A stretch of 64,000 bases of DNA, taken from the NCBI GenBank assembly GCA_039802605.1, contig JBDRWW010000001.1:282227-346226 (forward strand). The letters run 5' to 3'. Below are positions 21,432 to 50,296 of the stretch, one piece after another. Within the stretch, counting starts at the first letter, position 1; each line of letters begins with the position of its first letter. Source of the stretch: a candidate division WOR-3 bacterium. Its GTDB lineage: Bacteria > Hydrothermota > Hydrothermia > LBFQ01. Under the pieces are notes generated by a model. The model was not told the DNA's origin. It ran no database searches and was given only the letters and a program-made list of their open reading frames with translations. A program made the position numbers and the translations under genes.

Positions 21432-21986
21432 ATGGAGGTTTATTCAAGGGAAAAGGTTTGGACATATGAGGATTACTTAAAACTTGAAGACGATAAGCGT
21501 TATGAGGTTATTAACGGGAGGTTGGTAGAAATGCCCGCGCCGGGTTTTGAACATCAAAAGGTTTTAAATGCCATAAACTTGAAGATTTACACTTTCGTGT
21601 TGGAAAAGGATTTTGGCGAAATTGTCCCATCACCCTTTGATGTTATATTATCCGAGGATATCGTAGTTCAGCCGGATATAGTTTTTATATCCAAAGATAA
21701 CTTGAAAAACATAAGAGAAGGCCGTTTGTTTGGCGCCCCGGACATGATTGTTGAAATAGTATCGCCAGGTAGTTATAATAGGGATAGGTATGAAAAATTC
21801 AAAATATATGAAGAGTTTGGTGTTAAGGAGTATTGGATAGTTTTACCCGGTGAAAAGGCGGTGGAGGTGTGGGTTTTGGGTGAGAAGGGAAAATATGAAC
21901 TTTACTCCTTTGCGGAAAAAGAGGGGAAGGTTAAAAGCAAAGTTTTAGAAGGCTTAGAAATTGATTTAAAGGGGGTGTTTGGATGA
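21432..21986 (+). CDS. Uma2-family (DUF820) putative PD-(D/E)xK endonuclease, tandem copy 1
   Basis: 184 aa; PDIVFI ... APDMIVEIVSP motifs; paralog of the next three genes. Confidence 0.7.
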   Translation: MEVYSREKVWTYEDYLKLEDDKRYEVINGRLVEMPAPGFEHQKVLNAINLKIYTFVLEKDFGEIVPSPFDVILSEDIVVQPDIVFISKDNLKNIREGRLFGAPDMIVEIVSPGSYNRDRYEKFKIYEEFGVKEYWIVLPGEKAVEVWVLGEKGKYELYSFAEKEGKVKSKVLEGLEIDLKGVFG

Positions 21987-22537
21987 ATACGGAAGTTAAG
22001 GAAAAAGTTTGGACTTATGAGGATTATTTAAAACTTGAAGATGATAAGCGTTATGAGGTTATTAACGGGAGGTTGGTAGAAATGCCCGCGCCTACTCCTT
22101 GGCATCAGGATATTTCAAGGAATTTGTTATTTCTACTTTGGGGATTTGTTAAGGGCAAAGACTTGGGTAAAATATACCACTCTCCCATAGATATAGTGTT
22201 AAGAGAAGATGTGGTATTACAACCCGATATAGTTTATATTTCAAAGGAAAAACTCGGGATAGTAGGGGAGAAAGCGGTAAATGGCACGCCGGACTTGGTT
22301 GTAGAAATAGTTTCGCCATCAACGGCACGGAGGGATACGGTAGTTAAGAAGGGGATATATGAAAATTTTGGTGTTAAGGAATATTGGATTGTTTATCCCG
22401 ATGAAAAGGCGATAGAGGTATGGGTTTTAAATGAAAGCGGAAAATATGAACTTTATTCCTTTGCAGAAAAAGAGGGGAAGGTTAAAAGTAAAGTTTTGGA
22501 AGGCTTAGAGGTTGATTTAAAGGAGGTGTTCGGATGA
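21983..22537 (+). CDS. Uma2-family putative endonuclease, tandem copy 2
   Basis: 184 aa; ATGA overlap with copy 1; N-half variant (TPWHQ), C-half type B. Confidence 0.7.
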   Translation: MNTEVKEKVWTYEDYLKLEDDKRYEVINGRLVEMPAPTPWHQDISRNLLFLLWGFVKGKDLGKIYHSPIDIVLREDVVLQPDIVYISKEKLGIVGEKAVNGTPDLVVEIVSPSTARRDTVVKKGIYENFGVKEYWIVYPDEKAIEVWVLNESGKYELYSFAEKEGKVKSKVLEGLEVDLKEVFG

Positions 22538-23085
22538 AGGAAATGGTTAAGGAAAGGATTTGGACTTACGAGGATTATTTGAAACTTGAAGACGATAAGC
22601 GTTATGAGGTTATTAACGGGAGGTTGGTAGAAATGCCCGCGCCGGGTTTTGAACATCAGAAGATTTCGGGCTTAATAGACTTTATATTGCGGAAATTTGT
22701 CTATAAAGAGCGCATAGGGGAAGTTTTATATGCCCCCTTTGATGTAATACTTTCGGAAAATATCGTAGTTCAACCGGATATAGTTTTCATATCAAACGAA
22801 AATCTGAAAAACATAAAAGAAGGGCGTCTTTTCGGTCCTCCGGACTTGGTTGTGGAAATAGTATCTCCGGGCAGTTATAAGAGGGATAGATTTGAAAAGT
22901 TCAAGATATACGAGGAATTTGGGGTTAAAGAGTATTGGATAGTTTTACCGGGCGAAAAGGTAATAGAGGTTTGGTGTTTGAAGGAAGGTAAGTATGTTTT
23001 ACACTCCATAGCCGTTGAAAAGGGGGAGGTTGAAAGCTGCCTTTTAAAGGGTTTAAAGGTAAAAGTTGAGGAGGTGTTTAAATGA
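22534..23085 (+). CDS. Uma2-family putative endonuclease, tandem copy 3
   Basis: 183 aa; ATGA overlap; N-half type A, C-half type A. Confidence 0.7.
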   Translation: MKEMVKERIWTYEDYLKLEDDKRYEVINGRLVEMPAPGFEHQKISGLIDFILRKFVYKERIGEVLYAPFDVILSENIVVQPDIVFISNENLKNIKEGRLFGPPDLVVEIVSPGSYKRDRFEKFKIYEEFGVKEYWIVLPGEKVIEVWCLKEGKYVLHSIAVEKGEVESCLLKGLKVKVEEVFK

Positions 23086-23633
23086 AAGTGGATGTTAAGG
23101 AAAAAGTTTGGACTTACGAGGATTATTTGAAACTTGAAGATGATAAGCGTTATGAGGTTATTAACGGGAGGTTGGTAGAAATGCCCGCGCCGGGTTTTGA
23201 ACATCAGGATATTCTTACCGAGCTGATTTTAAAATTTAAAGTTTTTACTAAGGAGAATACTTTGGGAAAGGTTATTCCCTCCCCATTTGATGTAATACTC
23301 TCGGAAAGTGTTGTCGTTCAACCCGACATAGTTTATATATCAAAAGAAAACCTGAAAAACATAAAAGAGGGTCGCTTATTCGGGGCTCCGGACTTGGTTG
23401 TAGAAATAGTTTCGCCATCAACAACGAGGAGGGATACGGTTGTCAAGAAGGGGATATATGAAAATTTTGGTGTTAAGGAATATTGGATTGTTTATCCCGA
23501 TGAAAAGGCAATAGAGGTGTGGGTTTTGGGTGAGAAGGGAAAGGAGGGTTATGAACTTTATTCCTTTGCCGAGAAAAAAGTTAAAAGCAAGGTTTTAGGA
23601 GGCTTAGAGGTTGATTTAAAGGAAGTGTTTTAA
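23082..23633 (+). CDS. Uma2-family putative endonuclease, tandem copy 4
   Basis: 183 aa; ATGA overlap; N-half type A, C-half type B (mosaic). Confidence 0.7.
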   Translation: MKVDVKEKVWTYEDYLKLEDDKRYEVINGRLVEMPAPGFEHQDILTELILKFKVFTKENTLGKVIPSPFDVILSESVVVQPDIVYISKENLKNIKEGRLFGAPDLVVEIVSPSTTRRDTVVKKGIYENFGVKEYWIVYPDEKAIEVWVLGEKGKEGYELYSFAEKKVKSKVLGGLEVDLKEVF

Positions 23634-42674: not shown

Positions 42675-43072
42675 CCACCCATACCCTTACCGCGATGATG
42701 AGCATCTCTTAGTATTTCTGAAAACTTTTCCGGGCCGAGGATTTTCCTGAGTTGTAATATATACGAAAAGGTTGTCCTGTATAGTTTCTCTTTCACATTA
42801 ACGATTTGCTCATGGGTCTTCCTTATTTCCTCATCGCTTGCCTTTGGTGATCTCATCAACTCGTGCAACTTTACATGTAGGGCTTTTATTTCCGCTTGGA
42901 GTTTGAATACATCTTCCGCGGCCTTAACCTTTAATTTTGATATTTCCTCCCGTTGATTACCCTCTGCAACCGTTTCGGCCTTCTTAAAGATTCTCATTAG
43001 GTGCTTCCCCGGATCCGCATATGCCATTAATGGCATTGCCATTAAAATCAAAGCTATCCCTTTCATATCCAA
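42671..43072 (-). CDS. hypothetical periplasmic helical protein
   Basis: 133 aa; signal peptide (MKGIALILMAMPLMAYA) then coiled-coil-like sequence. Confidence 0.35.
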   Translation of the reverse strand: MDMKGIALILMAMPLMAYADPGKHLMRIFKKAETVAEGNQREEISKLKVKAAEDVFKLQAEIKALHVKLHELMRSPKASDEEIRKTHEQIVNVKEKLYRTTFSYILQLRKILGPEKFSEILRDAHHRGKGMGG

Positions 43073-43111
43073 TATATTTGATTCCGATATGTTCCCTCGT
43101 ATAATACCGTT

Positions 43112-43942
43112 ATGAAGGTCTTGGGTGTTGATGTCGGAGGGAGTTATACAAAGTTCGTAATTTGGGATGGTGAAAGGGTTTTAAAGAGGGGAAGGTTAAA
43201 GTGGAATTACGGAAGCGATTGGAACGACTTAAAAATATTGGTTGATAAGTTAATGGAAGATTTTGATGTTCATTATGTGGGTTTTGCCATAAGGGGGGTT
43301 TGGACAAAGGGGGAAAAGAAGAAATTGGAAAAGGTATTAAATGGAAAGGTTATAAGCGATGTTGAGGGTGTATTTTTTGATGCTTTTGGCTATGATGAAG
43401 GGATGGTTTTGATAGCGGGTACGGGTTCAATATGCCTTGCAAAGAAGGGGAATAAAACTTTTAGATACGGTGGATACGGTTATCTATTTTCCGATTGGGG
43501 CAGCGCCTTTTGGATCGGAAAAATGGCGGTGGAATTACTGTTAAAAAAGGAGAGTTTTTTGAGAATGGCGATTTTTAGAACGGAAGACTTGGAAAAAATA
43601 AGGTTAAAGGTTAAAAGGATAATGGAATTGGATAGGGGAAAGATGATAAAGAGGGTTGCCTCATTCTCCAAGATAGTTTTGAAGGTTGCCGAAATTGGTG
43701 ATGAGGATGCGAATTACCTTGTAAATTCTGCAATAAGGGAATTGCTCGGAATGTGTATCAAGGTGTATGACATTTCGGGTGTTTCATCCTTGGCCTTGCA
43801 CGGGGGTTTGTTTAAAAGCAAACTTATAAGGGATAGATTTTTAAACTTGGCAAAAAGGTATAATTTTGATATAAAAGGCTACGGATTTGATGGGGCCTTG
43901 GGGGTTGCCAAGTTTATAATGGCATCCGGTGGTCTTAAATAA
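43112..43942 (+). CDS. BadF/BadG/BcrA/BcrD-type ATPase (N-acetylglucosamine kinase-like)
   Basis: 276 aa; ASKHA N-terminal VLGVDVGGSYTK and GTGS motifs. Confidence 0.6.
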   Translation: MKVLGVDVGGSYTKFVIWDGERVLKRGRLKWNYGSDWNDLKILVDKLMEDFDVHYVGFAIRGVWTKGEKKKLEKVLNGKVISDVEGVFFDAFGYDEGMVLIAGTGSICLAKKGNKTFRYGGYGYLFSDWGSAFWIGKMAVELLLKKESFLRMAIFRTEDLEKIRLKVKRIMELDRGKMIKRVASFSKIVLKVAEIGDEDANYLVNSAIRELLGMCIKVYDISGVSSLALHGGLFKSKLIRDRFLNLAKRYNFDIKGYGFDGALGVAKFIMASGGLK

Positions 43943-44496
43943 ACGGGCGTAAAGTTCTCATCCAATTCCTTACCAAAACCTTTAAAAAACAAAATGAATA
44001 GGGAGTGTGCCCTTATATATCCCGTATAGGGTTTATAGCCTTCCAGGTTTAATACATCGGGTTTGTATATACCCAATTCGATAACACCGTCCTCATAAGG
44101 TATTCCGCCTTTTACTTGGAATGTTTGTGCATATATCTCCCCCTTACGGGCATCCAAGTATGCTATGTACTTCCCATCATCCAAACCCACAAGCATACTT
44201 TGTAATGTGTTAAATCCCAACATCGGTATCCCCTTTGATAGGTATAAGGCCTTGGCGAAGGAAGCCGAAACCCTTAAAGATGTGAAAAATCCCGGGCCTA
44301 AGTTTATCAAAAGGATGTTAGGTGGATTTTTGTCAAAATCCACAAATTTTGAAACCAATAAATTTAACATTTCAAGGTGTTTAAATTCTTTTAGGTGAAT
44401 TGCTCCGCGAATTTTACCCCTTTCGTAATAAGCCACTGAGATCCATAAGAAGGATGTATCAACCGCTAAAATAGACTTTTCCCTATTTCCACCCAT
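43879..44496 (-). CDS. tsaB: tRNA threonylcarbamoyladenosine biosynthesis protein TsaB
   Basis: 205 aa; ILAVDTS N-terminus and YeaZ-like fold pattern. Confidence 0.65.
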   Translation of the reverse strand: MGGNREKSILAVDTSFLWISVAYYERGKIRGAIHLKEFKHLEMLNLLVSKFVDFDKNPPNILLINLGPGFFTSLRVSASFAKALYLSKGIPMLGFNTLQSMLVGLDDGKYIAYLDARKGEIYAQTFQVKGGIPYEDGVIELGIYKPDVLNLEGYKPYTGYIRAHSLFILFFKGFGKELDENFTPVYLRPPDAIINLATPKAPSNP

Positions 44497-44828
44497 AACG
44501 GATTACCGGATCCGTCATAAAAACCCCTTAAACCTACAAAAAATCCCGATTTTGCGAGTTTAATTCCGTAATTTATACCCGTGGAATAATTCGCTTTGTT
44601 TTGGATTCTAAATCTACCAAGGGATATACCTAAGAAAGGAGAAAACTCAAAACCTTTTAACTTGGCCTTATAAATTCCCCCAGCATTTAGAACAATCAAA
44701 TCGTAATCCCCATATCCCGCATAAAAAGACCCGTTTGTGTAAAAATATCCCTTATGAAACTCTAAAAAAACACCCGGCCAAAAGTTTTTTATTAAGGCCG
44801 CCAAACCTATGCTTATACCTACGCTCAC
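44466..44828 (-). CDS. hypothetical protein
   Basis: 120 aa; Gly/Tyr-rich, no motif recognised. Confidence 0.25.
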   Translation of the reverse strand: MSVGISIGLAALIKNFWPGVFLEFHKGYFYTNGSFYAGYGDYDLIVLNAGGIYKAKLKGFEFSPFLGISLGRFRIQNKANYSTGINYGIKLAKSGFFVGLRGFYDGSGNPLWVEIGKSLF

Positions 44829-44917
44829 TTCTTGCTCTTGTGCCTCATCTTTTTACGACGCTTCTTCAATTTGTGCCTTTTTATCTTTTTAAGTTTCCTC
44901 TTCCTTCCGCAAGGCAT
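44825..44917 (-). CDS. 30-aa Arg/Lys-rich peptide, candidate bS22/AURKAIP1-family small ribosomal protein
   Basis: not in the ORF track; reads MPCGRKRKLKKIKRHKLKKRRKKMRHKSKK; AAGGAGGG SD 8 nt upstream; ATG overlaps the HU stop (TAATG); KKRRKKM-x-HK motif resembles M. smegmatis bS22 / mitochondrial mS38 C-termini. Confidence 0.45.
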   Translation of the reverse strand: MPCGRKRKLKKIKRHKLKKRRKKMRHKSKK

Positions 44918-45189
44918 TACTTTTCCCTCCTTTTCCTATTTTCTTCTGCTATCATCCTTTGCCTTATTACCTGTGAAAGTTTAAATTTTATCCTCGGAAT
45001 TTTATCTTCGCTTTTTCTCCTCTTCCTTTTAACCGGTATGAATACCCCAAAGCCCCTTAGCTCTATCCTTTCCTGCCTAACAAAGGCTTCTGCCATCTCT
45101 TCAAGAATGGCATCCAATATTTCTACCAATTCCTGTTTTCTCAAACCCGTCCTGTGTTTTAACCTATCAATTAATTCCGCCTTTGTCAT
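44917..45189 (-). CDS. HU/IHF-family DNA-binding protein with basic C-terminal extension
   Basis: 90 aa; MTKAELIDRL..., GFGVF arm motif; K/R-rich C-terminal tail. Confidence 0.65.
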   Translation of the reverse strand: MTKAELIDRLKHRTGLRKQELVEILDAILEEMAEAFVRQERIELRGFGVFIPVKRKRRKSEDKIPRIKFKLSQVIRQRMIAEENRKRREK

Positions 45190-45218
45190 TTCAACCGGAA
45201 TTATAAGGTTGTCTAATT

Positions 45219-46400
45219 TTACGATTTTAGCAACCTCCTTAACAATATCAGCCTTTGAATTTCACTTGTACCCTCGTAAATCTCCGTAACCTTTGCATCC
45301 CTGAAAAGCCTTTGTGAGTTCGTCTCCCTTGAATATCCCATAGAGCCCATTATTTGTATGGCCTTTGTGGTAACCCACATCGCGGTTTCGCTTGCGAATA
45401 ATTTCGCCATTGATGATGCCCAAAAGTATTCTTTGCCGCTATCCTTTAAGTAAGCCGCTCTATAGAGCAATAGCCTTGCCGCCTCTATCTTCATCCACAT
45501 ATCCGCGAGGGTAAAACCCACCGCTTCGTGTTCGTATATAGGCTTTCCGAATGTATATCTGGTTTTTGAAAACTCCTTTGCCTCCTCGTATGCGCCTTCG
45601 GCTATACCGAGGGCCTGGGCACCTATCCCTATCCTACCATCGTTTAGTATTTCCATTGCTATTTTAAATCCCTCCCCTTCTTTTCCCAACACTTCACTTT
45701 CATCCGCCTCGTAATCTTCTAGGATTATTTCCCCACTCCAAGCACCCCTTATACCCAGTTTTTTCTCTTTACTCCCAACCTTCGCCCCGTCCCTCTCCAT
45801 ATCAATTAAAAACGCCGTAATACCATTGTGCCCCTTTTCGGGATCCGTTTGGGCGAAGAATATAACATACTTTGCAACCGGGCCATTCGTTATCCAAACC
45901 TTTTGGCCATTTATGATGTATTTTGATCCCCTTTTTATAGCCCTTGATTTCAAGCTCACCGCATCGGAACCCGTATGCGGTTCCGTTAGTGCAAATGCCC
46001 CTATGTTAATCTTCCCATTTCCCAAACTCTTCCCCGCACTTTCCGGGGATACGAGGGGTACTAAAAACCTCTTCTTTTGCTCCTCCGTTCCAAACTTTTC
46101 CAAGCCATAAGCGTACAATGAATTGTTAACAGAGGCTATTACACCATGGGAGGGACAAACCTTTGAGAGTTCCTCTATAAGGATTATGTAGGCCAATGTA
46201 TCCATACCCGCCCCACCGTATTGGGGAGATACCTTTATCCCCAAAAACCCCAACTCCCCCATCCTTCTAACATTTTCAAAGGGAAATTCCTCTTTTTCAT
46301 CAATATCGGATGCTACCGGTTTAACATACCTTTCAACGAAATCCCTAACCGTTTCCTTCAACATTAAGTGTTCTTCATCCAAGTCAAGGTTTATAGGCAT
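45219..46400 (-). CDS. acyl-CoA dehydrogenase
   Basis: 393 aa; three-domain ACAD pattern, catalytic-base region YEGTSEIQRLI. Confidence 0.85.
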   Translation of the reverse strand: MPINLDLDEEHLMLKETVRDFVERYVKPVASDIDEKEEFPFENVRRMGELGFLGIKVSPQYGGAGMDTLAYIILIEELSKVCPSHGVIASVNNSLYAYGLEKFGTEEQKKRFLVPLVSPESAGKSLGNGKINIGAFALTEPHTGSDAVSLKSRAIKRGSKYIINGQKVWITNGPVAKYVIFFAQTDPEKGHNGITAFLIDMERDGAKVGSKEKKLGIRGAWSGEIILEDYEADESEVLGKEGEGFKIAMEILNDGRIGIGAQALGIAEGAYEEAKEFSKTRYTFGKPIYEHEAVGFTLADMWMKIEAARLLLYRAAYLKDSGKEYFWASSMAKLFASETAMWVTTKAIQIMGSMGYSRETNSQRLFRDAKVTEIYEGTSEIQRLILLRRLLKS

Positions 46401-46953
46401 AAGCGGGAATTATAAAAGGGTTTAATGTGGGATCTCTTCTTCGGCCATCCCGTAGTACAAGAGCCAGAATGTCATCTATATCTCGGCATTACGCTGGGCC
46501 AGCTTTTGCGTGAGGCGAAGCATTGCGCTTAGGCTACCTTTTGCCATCCGTACTTCCTCCGGTGTGGCATAGCGGCGTACATGTGCCCACATGTGCTCCA
46601 AGGCGTTCTGCACGCCGCCTATCGTCGGCTGTTGGCGCAGGATCAGTGTCAGTTCGTCCATTACCGCGGGTAAATCTTCCCGACGAGCCTTGGTCATCCT
46701 GCGGCCCAACTCCCGGTAAATATTCGGAATACTTGTGATGAGCCCAGGCTTGCTGGGGATGCCCCGGTAGCGGGATTCGGCCAGCGGTTCGGGTTAGGAG
46801 GGATGGGCAGGGGTGAGTTATGCCGATATCCGCGCAATTTCATCTCGGCAACCAGCCAGCCATGGCGCACGGCAAGGGCTCCCAGGCAATCCTTCCAGCG
46901 CTTCGTTTCCGGATGGGCGGCGTAACCCCGCCGCCCTTCTAGGTGCACCACAA

Positions 46954-47280
46954 CTAAACACCCCGCAAGGACAATGCTCTACTGCTAACCACGCGGCGAC
47001 GCCCGGCCAGTTCAAAAATCTCATCAAACAGAAAAGGCGCCGTAATAACCGTGGGGCCGCCGTCGAAAACAAATCCATCTTGCTTGACGGCATAGGCGCG
47101 TCCGCCGGGTTTGTCCAACTTCTCAAAAACGACAACATCATACCCCCGCGCGGCAACCGCCAGCCCCCAAAGCCTGTACCGAAACATGTGCACGCCGTGT
47201 AAATACATCATAGTCGTGCGCTTCAATGTCGTCCAGAATGGCGCGATAGAGTTCCGCGGCGGTAACGGCAAACCGCCCAT
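46954..47280 (-). pseudogene. phytoene desaturase (CrtI)-like 5' fragment
   Basis: fragment [55 protein letters not shown] aligns to the CrtI N-terminus, then terminates. Confidence 0.5.
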
Positions 47281-47740
47281 CGCGATGCAAGAAAGCTATA
47301 CCGGGTAAAGATTCTTCATAAAGGCGACGGACACGAGCAATTTGGAAGTGCATAAAGGCTCGCCAGCGTTTATCAACACGTCCTGCGGAAGATATAGCCG
47401 CGTTTAACGGCGTAGGGAATGGCGGCAGTACTCGACAGTAGACGCCACGCCGTAGCAATAGTGTGCCAGGTCTTCGAAAGTGGCATAACGCGTATTGGTT
47501 AGGTCTTTTTCAAGTGCTTCCAAGCAACGAGGACGGGATGATCTTGGACGGTAAGTATTGGCGCCGATCCCCTTCAAGTGTATCCACAGTGTCGTCACTC
47601 ATACGGCAGAAGGCATAAAGTGCGCGGATGGCGCGCCATATAAAACGTACGACTTTTGAGGTATGTAATTTTTTCACACTCGGTATAGGCTCTGCTTGTA
47701 TCGTAATGCGCATGGCCTTACGGATCAAGGATTGCTCCAA
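47138..47740 (-). pseudogene. phytoene synthase (CrtB)-like gene disrupted by frameshifts
   Basis: three overlapping frames carry squalene/phytoene-synthase signatures: [14 protein letters not shown] (47510-47740), [19 protein letters not shown] (47404-47598), C-terminal part (47138-47458). Confidence 0.5.
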
Positions 47741-47777
47741 AAAACGGCTAAAAATCAGACTTTTTTGTATAAGTTAA

Positions 47778-48148
47778 TGGAGGCGGCGGGAATCGAACCC
47801 GCGTCCGAACGGATTACTAACCCCCGGGTGTTTTACAGGCTTAGCCCCTTCTTTCAATTTACATCCCAACCCCTAGGGCGTCGGGGCGATTCCCTTGTGG
47901 GCTGGGACGCCCATTTTTTGAGTTGGTTTCACCCCGGAAAAATGGGGAAAACCGGGGCGAAACCCCCACCCTAAGGGACCCCTTCCGGGCGCCGGGTGGG
48001 GAGCAACCCGGAAGAGGTGGCGGTCAATTAGGCCGCCAAGGCGTAATTCGCGTTCGCACTTATTTTGTTTTTGGGCTTTTTTACGGGGTTGCCCGCCCCG
48101 GCCTGCACCCGGTAGGCTTTCACCCGCCGTCGATACCCTTTCGCCCCC
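47778..48148 (-). ncRNA. ssrA: tmRNA (transfer-messenger RNA)
   Basis: reverse complement starts GGGGGCGAAAGGGTATCGACGG (G3-U70 acceptor pair) and ends GGACGCGGGTTCGATTCCCGCCGCCTCCA; tag ORF GCG AAC GCG AAT TAC GCC TTG GCG GCC TAA encodes ANANYALAA. Confidence 0.85.
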
Positions 48149-48170
48149 CTTTCATTCAAAGGAGAAGATA

Positions 48171-49433
48171 TTATAAGGCCGAAGAATTTACCAAAATTTT
48201 TTCTTTATACTTGTTCACAAACGCCCCCACCGCCATCTGGGCTGCTTCACCCAAAGCGCAAAAACACTTTCCTTTAATCTCGTTAGTAATATCGTTTAAA
48301 AGTTTTATATCCTCTTCGGTGGCATATCCCCTTTTCTCAATATCCACCAATATCCTGGTCATCCAAGCGGTTCCATCCCTGCAAGGGGTGCATTTCCCGC
48401 ACGATTCAAAGGCAAAGAATTCCGATGTCCTCCTTATTAGGGATAGGAGTTTAACGCTTCTGTCAAGCACTATTATAGCCCCGCTCCCCAGCATGCTTCC
48501 CCTCTTTGCAATATCCTCCATTGTTAATGGGGTATCCAACTCCTCCGGTGTTAGAATTGGTGCCGATATTCCCCCAGGTATAACCCCTAAGAGTTCCCTA
48601 CCCTCTAATAGACCACCGCAAACATCGTATATTAGTTCCCTTAAAGTTAAGGAACCCAGTTCAAACTCATAAACACCGGGTTTTTTAACCGGACCCGATA
48701 CCGCGAACAACCTCGTACCCGTACTTTCCTCTGTTCCAAGGGAAGCATACCAATCACCCCCTTTGTTTATTATGATGGGTACCGTTGCAAGGGTTTCAAC
48801 ATTATTAACAACCGTGGGCATACCGTATAAACCCGCCTGGGCTGGATATGGGGGTTTCAACCTCGGCAACCCCCTTTTACCTTCCAAACTATCCAAAAGG
48901 GCGGTCTCTTCACCGCATATATACGCACCGGCCCCCAAGTAAACATAAAGCTCAAAATCAAACCCGCTCCCCAATATATTTTTGCCGAGAAATCCATTGT
49001 TATAAGCCTCCTTTATCGCCTCTTTTAATCTCGGGAAAATCCATATGTACTCATACCTCAGATAAATGTATCCCTCCTTTGCGCCTATCGCCTTACCCGC
49101 TATAACCATACCCTCTATCAGCAGGTGGGGGGCTTTATACAAAATTTCCCTATCCTTAAAGGTTCCGGGCTCCCCTTCATCCGCATTACAAACCACATAT
49201 TTGGGGCCCGGGTGATCCTTTGGAACGAAATCCCACTTCAAACCCGTTGGAAATCCGGCACCGCCTCTACCCCTCAACTTTGATTTCTTTACCTCCTCTA
49301 TTATATCCTGCGGCTGCATTTCAAACAAAGCCTTCTTTAAGGCCGTATACCCCCCAAGGGAAAGGTATGCGTTAAGTGTATGACTGTTTTCAACATCGGT
49401 ATATGCAAGTAAAAGCCTGTATTCCTTCGCCAT
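48171..49433 (-). CDS. nuoF: NADH-quinone oxidoreductase subunit F (NuoF-like flavoprotein)
   Basis: 420 aa; [17 protein letters not shown] motifs and C-terminal 4Fe-4[13 protein letters not shown]; no nuoE/nuoG adjacent. Confidence 0.8.
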
Positions 49434-49510
49434 AAGTGGGGTATTTTACCGCTGTTTAAATTCCGAAAGCGGTTTATTATAATTTATGCCGGATACCAAA
49501 TATACGCACT

Positions 49511-49903
49511 ATGAAAGGCATATTGGCATTTTTATCCGGCATAGGTTTGGGGCTTGCCGTTTTGTACGGTTGCAATAAGGCCTCGGAAGGTGCGAAAGAG
49601 GTTAGCTTCAAGGTAAAGTTCAAGGCATACGATACAAAAATAGATTCGGCGACCATAGAGGGTTTTACCATAAGAAATGTTTTGGTGGTAAGGGTTGGGA
49701 ATAAAGTTAATGTTGAACTCATAAACGAATCCCCCATAAGCGAAAACTTCTCCATAGAGGGATACGGGGTAAATACCACATTAAAACCACAGGAAACGGC
49801 TAAGGTTTCCTTTACAGCCGATAGGCCCGGCGCATATACCATTTGGTGCAATTTGCATCCAAAGAATATACACCTACCGGGTAGCTTTGTGGTTGTGGAA
49901 TGA
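49511..49903 (+). CDS. cupredoxin-like lipoprotein (putative metal-binding)
   Basis: 130 aa; lipobox LAVLYGC; beta-sandwich-like sequence with C-x2-H-x4-H near the C-terminus (WCNLHPKNIH). Confidence 0.35.
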   Translation: MKGILAFLSGIGLGLAVLYGCNKASEGAKEVSFKVKFKAYDTKIDSATIEGFTIRNVLVVRVGNKVNVELINESPISENFSIEGYGVNTTLKPQETAKVSFTADRPGAYTIWCNLHPKNIHLPGSFVVVE

Positions 49904-50296
49904 AGGGTTTAAGGGTTTTTATAGCATCGTTTATGGGTATAATCGTAGTCGCATCCCCCGGGAAAAAACCGGTGCATATTCCGGATGTAAAGGTTTATAC
50001 CGACTACGACACGCTTAGTATAAATTATCGTATATCTCGGATATGCCAAATGCCCGGATGTGTGCAATTCGGCCCTATTCCTTATAAACTCCGCTTGGGA
50101 AAAATCGGAATGTAAATTCAATCTCGTGTTTATAGGTATAGACCCCAACGAGAGTATTGACGATTTGAAGGACTATACCGGTAAATTTAACAAAGACTTT
50201 ATTGCGGTAAAACCTTTGAGTTATTCTCAACTCAAAAGGGCATTTCCATATTTGTATATTACTACGGAAAAAGGGTTCAAAGGGTTTTTCCAATAG
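49900..50296 (+). pseudogene. SCO1/SenC-like thioredoxin-fold protein apparently split by a frameshift
   Basis: frame A (49900-50115) has signal/TM plus CQMPGC (CxxxC); frame B (50060-50296, +1) has VFIGIDPNESIDDLKDYTGKFNKDFIAVKP resembling the SCO VFISVDPERD...Y region with SCO-like spacing. Confidence 0.3.

Follow-up and report, generated by a model that had tools for sequence, protein, structure and literature searches.

A decaying, apparently Chloroflexota-derived remnant of photoprotection genes beside ssrA in a hot-spring WOR-3 bacterium

The window analyzed here, a 64,000-nucleotide stretch of contig JBDRWW010000001.1 (assembly GCA_039802605.1) from a hot-spring WOR-3 bacterium of the Caldipriscus type, carries between its transfer-messenger RNA (tmRNA) gene ssrA and the acyl-CoA dehydrogenase gene acd a segment (46401-47777) in which no open reading frame (ORF) is intact, and this locus raises the question of where the segment came from, how it entered and what has become of it since. 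A preliminary description, which was made from the sequence letters and a list of ORFs, had regarded the segment as the decayed remnant of a horizontally acquired element from a donor of higher GC content. We consider it very probable that the segment is a real, lineage-specific insertion from Chloroflexota, now the decaying remnant of photoprotection genes; this core of the earlier reading is upheld by an empty site in relatives, by the Chloroflexota affinity of the pieces, and by the recurrence of the insert. An earlier description of this feature was not found in a literature search.

The insert and its empty counterpart in relatives

The insert and both of its junctions were found again at 98.7-99.9% identity across projects, assemblers, and years, namely, in at least five metagenome-assembled genomes (MAGs) at NCBI, in the Logan assemblies SRR27730012/29/47, SRR21619494, and DRR082460, and in the JGI metagenome 3300000865. 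Loci of 21 kb were recovered from GCA_039802665.1, GCA_039802465.1, GCA_039802685.1, and GCA_039802765.1, and shorter loci from GCA_039802545.1 and Logan; the insert in these NCBI and Logan loci is 99.5-99.9% identical to that of the window. Further Logan runs (SRR27730029, SRR27730047, and DRR082460) and JGI metagenome 3300000865 also contain the ORFs of the debris. For acd, the exact protein is recorded in 36 blocks of the searched collection, and NCBI contigs of 44-288 kb run across both junctions. The insert is real and not an assembly artefact.

Six contigs of the sister Caldipriscus clade carry the empty site, in which the tmRNA and acd are 5 bp apart (...GGTTCGATTCCCGCCGCCTCCA-CTTAC-ATG, the ATG being that of acd). 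One of these contigs is from a Candidatus Caldipriscus MAG (L008) and was retrieved by a genome scan with a NuoF-like protein, and the others (L074-L078) were retrieved by a scan of JGI metagenomes with the tag-coding region of the tmRNA. The synteny nuoF-tmRNA-acd is kept between the window and this clade, L008 is 84% identical to the window in NuoF and 87% in acd (86-89% for acd across the sister-clade orthologues), and no similarity to the insert was found in the six contigs. The tmRNA of the window, which matches the Rfam model RF00023 over its full length (model positions 1-374, 163.7 bits against a gathering score of 47), terminates at the discriminator A, with CCA not encoded, and its final 29 nt are the same as those of the sister clade. 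The insert starts at 47777, the first base past this discriminator, and the sequence thus runs from the tmRNA (...CCTCCA) through TTAACTTATAC into the insert and leaves it through TTTTATAATTCCCGCTT-ATG at the start of acd. The comparison of the window with the six empty sites therefore places the insertion exactly in the 5-bp spacer and makes it specific to the lineage of the window. The earlier statements that no ORF is intact between acd and ssrA and that the segment abuts the 3' end of ssrA exactly agree with the ORF list and with the ARAGORN boundary and sister-clade alignment, respectively, and the comparison of the ssrA-acd junction in relatives that had been suggested as a check was answered by the six empty sites.

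Dead genes and ongoing decay

Judged from their reading frames, none of the three genes recognized in the insert, i.e., those for phytoene synthase (crtB), phytoene desaturase (crtI), and a pyrimidine-dimer glycosylase fused to DUF1722 (pdg-DUF1722), can be functional. The insert carries at least 10 disruptive junctions, and of 3.2 kb or more of coding sequence approximately 1.3 kb is left. The coordinates of these genes and of their surroundings are listed in Table 1.

Table 1. Positions in the window of the insert, its parts, and the flanking host genes
Feature	Position	Strand	Basis
Whole insert, lineage-specific, 1,377 bp	46401-47777	minus	between tmRNA and acd start codon
Right junction cccttttataATTCCCGCtt, directly before acd ATG	46401-46421	minus	sequence
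pdg-DUF1722 pseudogene (fused Pyr_excise and DUF1722)	46422-46957	minus	Pfam and homology search
crtI N-terminal fragment, ~65 of ~500 codons	46996-47190	minus	Pfam NAD_binding_8, Amino_oxidase
crtB pseudogene, at least 6 pieces	47180-47717	minus	Pfam SQS_PSY, phmmer, tblastn, three-frame translation
AT-rich leader, 35% GC, 63 nt, directly after tmRNA end	47715-47777	minus	composition
tmRNA (ssrA), intact	47778-48148	minus	ARAGORN; tag ANANYALAA
acd (acyl-CoA dehydrogenase), host, intact; downstream boundary of insert	45219-46400	minus	ORF and Pfam domains
NuoF-like (Complex1_51K), host, upstream of tmRNA; synteny anchor	48171-49433	minus	ORF list and Pfam

Regarding crtB, a Pfam scan of the minus-strand frames returned pieces of SQS_PSY (PF00494) at profile positions 21-41, 93-124, and 190-260 of 263, two of which are significant (E 6e-8 and 3e-13) and the N-terminal one of which is weak when taken alone (E 0.054), while positions 42-92 and 125-189 are mostly missing. 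A phmmer search with crtB reached E 3e-36, with 70-80% amino-acid identity across the C-terminal piece. According to a disruption map drawn from tblastn against two homologous proteins and a contig (P0004, P0007, and L069) and from three-frame translations read beside homologues, the pieces follow one another in frames 0,1,2,0,2,1, approximately 39, 14, and 34 residues have been lost internally, and the C-terminus is short by 16. The first Asp-rich motif of CrtB is retained and the second (the RDxGED region, NILRDIGED in homologues) is deleted; a continuous ORF of ~280-310 amino acids with both motifs, as expected of a CrtB protein, is not present, and the gene is a homologue of crtB but a pseudogene. 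The preliminary description had already recognized a crtB pseudogene with at least two frameshifts, to which Pfam and phmmer add their agreement and the map several internal deletions.

Two observations on crtB elsewhere may be recorded here. Close homologues in contigs L069 (2904-3829) and L073 (7732-8705; an Anaerolineae MAG) are each split into two ORFs, possibly by a frameshift or an assembly error, and care is needed when these are used as references for an intact donor. In addition, a Logan contig of 1,942 bp encodes a CrtB homologue of 186 amino acids (P0051) with a large internal deletion that starts immediately behind the first Asp-rich motif and reaches the VDDRW region, a pattern that resembles that of crtB in the window.

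The crtI fragment matches Amino_oxidase (PF01593) at profile positions 11-60 of 443 (E 5e-8), in accordance with the approximately 60 amino acids of a CrtI N-terminus that had been noticed before. It reads GFGG / ...FDGGPTVIT...ELAGRR, with a 1-nt frameshift within the GxGxxG motif that was read from the sequence. The remainder of the gene beyond ~65 codons is deleted, and the ORF of ~490-510 amino acids with an N-terminal FAD-binding fold and a substrate domain that characterizes CrtI is not present.

The third gene is represented by a match to Pyr_excise (PF03013; profile positions 37-78 of 81, E 2e-11, 46694-46951) and one to DUF1722 (PF08349; 9-73 of 117, E 4e-6, 46476-46709), which are parts of one gene because fused homologues of ~240 amino acids match both; the two pieces joined as a query are 64% identical to such a homologue, P0121 (244 amino acids), over 99% of the query (E 2e-68). 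The fragment at 46476-46709 had been left unrecognized in the preliminary description, and the Pyr_excise piece had not been identified there either; the status of the former as coding debris stands, and it is now identified as the DUF1722 half of this frameshifted fusion. The debris corresponds to residues ~26-238 of P0121 in frames 1,2,0, i.e., with two frame changes, and has internal deletions of ~21 and 11 residues and an internal stop; a run of 37 residues is identical to P0121. It keeps the native C-terminus and stop codon (46422-46424) and lacks the first ~25 residues, the GEHRE region among them, such that no ORF of ~240 amino acids with the N-terminal catalytic region exists. In T4 endonuclease V, the GEHRE region holds the catalytic residues. 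As a separate observation on this family, in contigs L080-L082 (~5026-13757 in L080) a Pyr_excise-DUF1722 fusion gene immediately precedes a BTAD regulator gene and a cluster for a contractile injection system, the genes of which include Pvc16_N, a phage sheath, and a T4 gp19-like tube.

Decay is ongoing, and intermediate deletion states are found among strains. The insert measures 1,377 bp in the strain of the window; seven other strains have 1,388 bp, and L003 has 1,431 bp. An indel of 11 bp (GAGGTTTGGGT), near 47760 within the leader, is absent from the strain of the window, and a segment of 43 bp is kept by L003 only. Since this 43-bp segment returns the N-terminus of crtB in frame to an ATG (MLAFEDNSPVYHTNGAHYDTSRAYTECEKITYLKSRTFYMA...), L003 has retained the earlier arrangement, and the deletion seen in the other strains is more recent. 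Single-nucleotide polymorphisms (SNPs) amount to 0.15-0.29% in the insert versus 0.01-0.04% in the ~19-kb flanks of most strains (0.15% in the flanks of L004), a ratio of insert to flanks of ~2-29 (Fisher p 0.007-0.18). Where codons differ between the debris and its closest homologue, approximately half of the changes are synonymous, and the 37-residue run mentioned above is identical at 84% DNA identity; most of the divergence therefore arose under selection in living donors, and pseudogenization in this lineage is comparatively recent.

Horizontally acquired pseudogenes in compact prokaryotic genomes are removed by deletion bias. The insert resembles such pseudogenes in that internal deletions and frameshifts are numerous but the amino-acid sequence has decayed little, as well as in the indel polymorphism among near-identical strains and the raised SNP density relative to the flanks. 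We see no essential difference from them; the insert is a textbook-like case that is distinguished by the readability of its steps. It is evolving neutrally, as DNA free of constraint would be expected to do under deletion bias, and nothing points to a function at present.

Origin of the inserted DNA

The composition of the insert differs from that of the host. The GC content of the window is 41.4%, and the span 46430-47760 has 54.7%, the highest value among all 1.3-kb stretches in the window. The acd-proximal half (46430-47100) has 58% GC and the tmRNA-proximal half (47101-47760) 51%. The 60-67% GC given in the preliminary description thus applies to local peaks (65.5% over 200 nt and 68% over 100 nt, both in the acd-proximal half) but not to the segment as a whole.

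The protein matches mark the insert as foreign and, as far as sequence comparisons can tell, as derived from Chloroflexota. The named matches to crtB all belong to Anaerolineae/Anaerolineales, and the sole named match to pdg-DUF1722 is from Litorilinea aerophila (Caldilineae, Chloroflexota) at 46% identity. The matches to crtI are 62-71% identical, and the named ones are mostly from Chloroflexota (Thermomicrobiales, Chloroflexia, Ktedonobacterales, Herpetosiphonaceae, Caldilineaceae, and Anaerolineae), with one each from Chlorobi OLB5 and Gemmatimonadota outside this phylum. The nearest DNA found was in contig L079 (70% GC), which is 77-84% identical to the pdg-DUF1722 debris. Both Thermus/Deinococcus and Chloroflexi had been named as possible donor groups; the latter agrees with the named matches, and a Thermus/Deinococcus donor is not supported, as no such name occurs among the named matches to crtB, pdg-DUF1722, and crtI.

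The gene neighborhoods of Chloroflexota carotenoid clusters bear on the question of whether the pieces share a source. In L079, pdg-DUF1722 lies between an acyltransferase and a glycosyltransferase gene, and in L072, crtB and a lycopene cyclase gene are accompanied by acyltransferase and glycosyltransferase genes of the same types. An Amino_oxidase gene directly follows crtB in the Anaerolineae contig L073, the order in L069 and L070 is crtB, lycopene cyclase, and a crtD-like gene, and that in L083 is crtI followed by crtB. These clusters, in which crtB is found with crtI or a lycopene cyclase gene plus acyl- and glycosyltransferases, resemble the insert in gene families and orientation (L069, L072, L073, and L079), with 64-80% amino-acid identity in the blocks that are kept, and differ from it in that no recovered contig has crtB, crtI, and pdg-DUF1722 adjacent to one another and in that the top DNA identity is the 77-84% of L079. 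The crtI of the debris is not closely similar to the Amino_oxidase genes in L069 and L073, and contig L089 provided no upstream context. All fragments of the insert lie on one strand and in order. A single photoprotection cluster is a plausible source of all pieces; a composite origin is possible.

In a distant blastn search, the insert had no match among the plasmids of PLSDB or the phages of INPHARED. P0121 likewise had no match in the viral contigs of IMG/VR, and there is therefore no sign of phage-borne cargo.

The insert is certainly a pseudogenized inter-phylum transfer. It belongs to a well-known kind, is an ordinary relic of horizontal transfer, and does not represent a new kind of system. 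It is a clean example of transfer from Chloroflexota to WOR-3/Caldipriscota in geothermal communities, and shows how a compact thermophile genome quickly erases useless DNA by deletion, not by point mutation, with the intermediates still segregating. For annotators, the short ORFs with SQS_PSY or Pyr_excise matches that have been called in these MAGs are debris of pseudogenes, and they provide no evidence of carotenoid synthesis by WOR-3 bacteria.

Mode of entry and possible effects on acd

In our reading, DNA derived from Chloroflexota was inserted into the 5-bp ssrA-acd spacer of a Caldipriscus-related lineage, with a cargo consisting of the photoprotection genes crtB, crtI, and the pdg-DUF1722 fusion, all in one orientation, and deletions and frameshifts have since reduced this cargo to the present debris. 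As a tentative view, to which we assign slightly less than an even chance, the DNA entered as the cargo of an integrative element targeting ssrA, the integrase module and most of the right attachment site (attR) of which have since been deleted. Genomic islands that cross over in the T-loop and are bounded by a 20-bp repeat have been documented at ssrA in Dehalococcoides (PMC3146451). As in these islands, the atypical foreign DNA in the window lies directly 3' of an intact, single-copy tmRNA gene and is absent from close relatives, and a possible remnant of the repeat starts in the T-loop. This remnant is the octamer ATTCCCGC at 46403-46410, 2 nt before the ATG of acd, which is the same as tmRNA positions 47786-47793 (the 3' half of the T-loop/T-stem) and may, as a weak possibility suggested by its sequence, be what is left of a degraded attR; 0.27% of 20-nt windows hold by chance any octamer from the last 30 nt of the tmRNA. 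The insert is unlike the Dehalococcoides islands in having no integrase or integration module, in a repeat of 8 nt instead of 15-20 bp or longer, in its size of only 1.4 kb, and in consisting wholly of pseudogene fragments. The position 3' of the tmRNA and the empty site are those of an ssrA island, a recombinase gene is not there, and the insert resembles, and may well be, what is left of a genomic island linked to ssrA.

The 3' end of tmRNA genes is a recurrent target in other settings as well. IMG/VR has more than 120 viral contigs with the exact 23-nt end of the tmRNA of the window (GGGTTCGATTCCCGCCGCCTCCA). In 80 of these that were examined (L091-L170), 32 copies lie inside a tmRNA gene and 48 have no detected tmRNA or tRNA gene around the match; the sequence context of the latter is consistent with attachment sites. 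Work by Williams from 2002/2003 is said to have described integration "sublocations" in ssrA.

Several observations weigh against the reading set out here, or against parts of it. No integrase or recombinase domain was found in the insert (Pfam) or in called genes within ~10 kb on either side, and a search for direct repeats of the ssrA end yielded none that reached 11 nt; both results agree with what the preliminary description had seen, such that in its proposal of a tmRNA-targeting island as the means of delivery, the location at the 3' end of ssrA is borne out and the integrase and repeat are not found. In a local alignment of the tmRNA end with the 60 nt before acd, only ATTCCCGC was recovered (p ~0.03), a result that is post hoc and weak. 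crtB, crtI, and pdg-DUF1722 were not found together on one donor contig among the contigs examined. GC at third codon positions (GC3) is uneven along the insert, with values of 0.40-0.50 for the pieces of crtB, 0.58 for crtI, and 0.62-0.66 for pdg-DUF1722, and a comparison of the leader (47715-47777) with the window, the sister-clade loci, and the donor-like contigs returned nothing significant; given this uneven GC3 and the unmatched leader of 35% GC, more than one donor or event is possible. Furthermore, the next relative, L009 (WOR-3 S146_79), has no tmRNA after nuoF and a different synteny; it was rejected as an outgroup for this reason, and the polarity of the change is therefore judged from parsimony, from composition, and from the foreign affinities of the genes.

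Some of these points speak for a different route of entry, in which illegitimate or microhomology-mediated recombination or the repair of a double-strand break captured environmental DNA of Chloroflexota, possibly as several fragments, without a site-specific recombinase. The insert would have survived because the spacer is among the few places in this compact genome where no gene is broken. We regard this route as a serious possibility that is nearly as likely as entry mediated by an integrase; the missing integrase, the lack of a convincing attachment repeat, a short CTTA/CTT repeat at both junctions, the difference in composition between the crtB and pdg parts, the unmatched leader, and the lack of a donor contig with all three genes are all in line with it. 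However, a chance landing in a 5-bp spacer at the tmRNA end is improbable, although selection filters other sites, all fragments have the same orientation and relate to a single functional theme, the T-arm match of 8 nt stands exactly where attR would lie, and tmRNA ends are a well-known target of recombinases (PMC3146451; the IMG/VR matches above).

Two further alternatives concern the insertion itself. The genes may have been present at this site in the ancestor of the Caldipriscus lineage, have decayed in the lineage of the window, and have been cleanly deleted in the sister clade, which the different synteny of the sole outgroup recovered would allow, since polarity is not formally fixed. 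We consider this to be very unlikely because one and the same 5-bp spacer is found in six of the six sister contigs, the GC and GC3 of the insert exceed host values, the named best matches are from Chloroflexota rather than WOR-3, and amino-acid identity to the Chloroflexota proteins is high despite pseudogenization. Alternatively, assembly or binning may have fused reads from Chloroflexota with a contig of WOR-3 at the end of the tmRNA, which is conserved; the preliminary description had named an assembly or contamination chimera as the alternative. Chloroflexota are known from hot springs in general (PMC8129789), and four Logan contigs (L006, L007, L087, and L088) break off within the final ~28 nt of the tmRNA, a k-mer shared with other organisms in the sample; since this stretch is shared with many organisms, these ends represent a branch in the assembly graph. 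Such a chimera has next to no likelihood and is ruled out by the recurrence of identical junctions, with the whole insert between them, in many independent assemblies from different projects, assemblers, and years; moreover, long NCBI contigs span the insert, the right junction lies in unique sequence, and the insert is a patchwork of deleted pseudogenes and not a piece of an intact Chloroflexota genome.

The insertion of Chloroflexota DNA also bears on the expression of acd. In the sister clade (L008:9613-9650; L074-L078), the start codon of acd follows 5 nt past the discriminator base of the tmRNA, CCA not being encoded, and the tmRNA and acd-hup are therefore presumably co-transcribed; with this spacing, processing of the tmRNA 3' end would yield a nearly leaderless acd mRNA. 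In the window, a perfect TATAAT hexamer at 46409-46414 lies 8 nt upstream of the ATG of acd and overlaps ATTCCCGC. It is compatible with an insertion from Chloroflexota that the debris has been co-opted in part and supplies a promoter or 5' leader for acd-hup, which was cut off from the tmRNA promoter. The co-transcription implied by the sister clade, the hexamer at the edge of the insert, and the intact state of acd are consistent with this idea, but a scan of 46000-48400 for promoters and terminators gave matches at or below shuffle expectation and none at the tmRNA end or the start of acd, and the density of SNPs and indels suggests that the bulk of the insert is unconstrained; we regard co-option as unlikely. 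A joint scenario, which as a whole would be slightly more unlikely still, combines these elements. A cross-phylum ssrA element would have passed from hot-spring Chloroflexota to WOR-3, the 23-nt core of the attachment site being identical across many bacteria, and would have uncoupled acd-hup from the tmRNA promoter; a degraded attR would then have changed from TTCGATTCCCGC to TATAATTCCCGC and been selected as a new -10 element that restored leaderless expression of acd, and the cargo would have been deleted.

Three other features of the window and its relatives were noted. In 43000-50000, a very strong strand-specific GC skew of up to ±0.6 (200-nt windows) tracks the coding strand, which indicates that G is enriched over C on the coding strand of the host genome. 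Four tandem paralogues of 183-184 amino acids on the plus strand (21432-23633), each a full-length member of the Uma2 family (PF05685, putative restriction endonuclease), have overlapping stop and start codons. Strain L004 (GCA_039802765.1) has two additional genes, of 289 amino acids (with a faint match to HSDR_N) and 63 amino acids, between purS and Complex1_49kDa (L004:16503-17584), which the other strains do not have.

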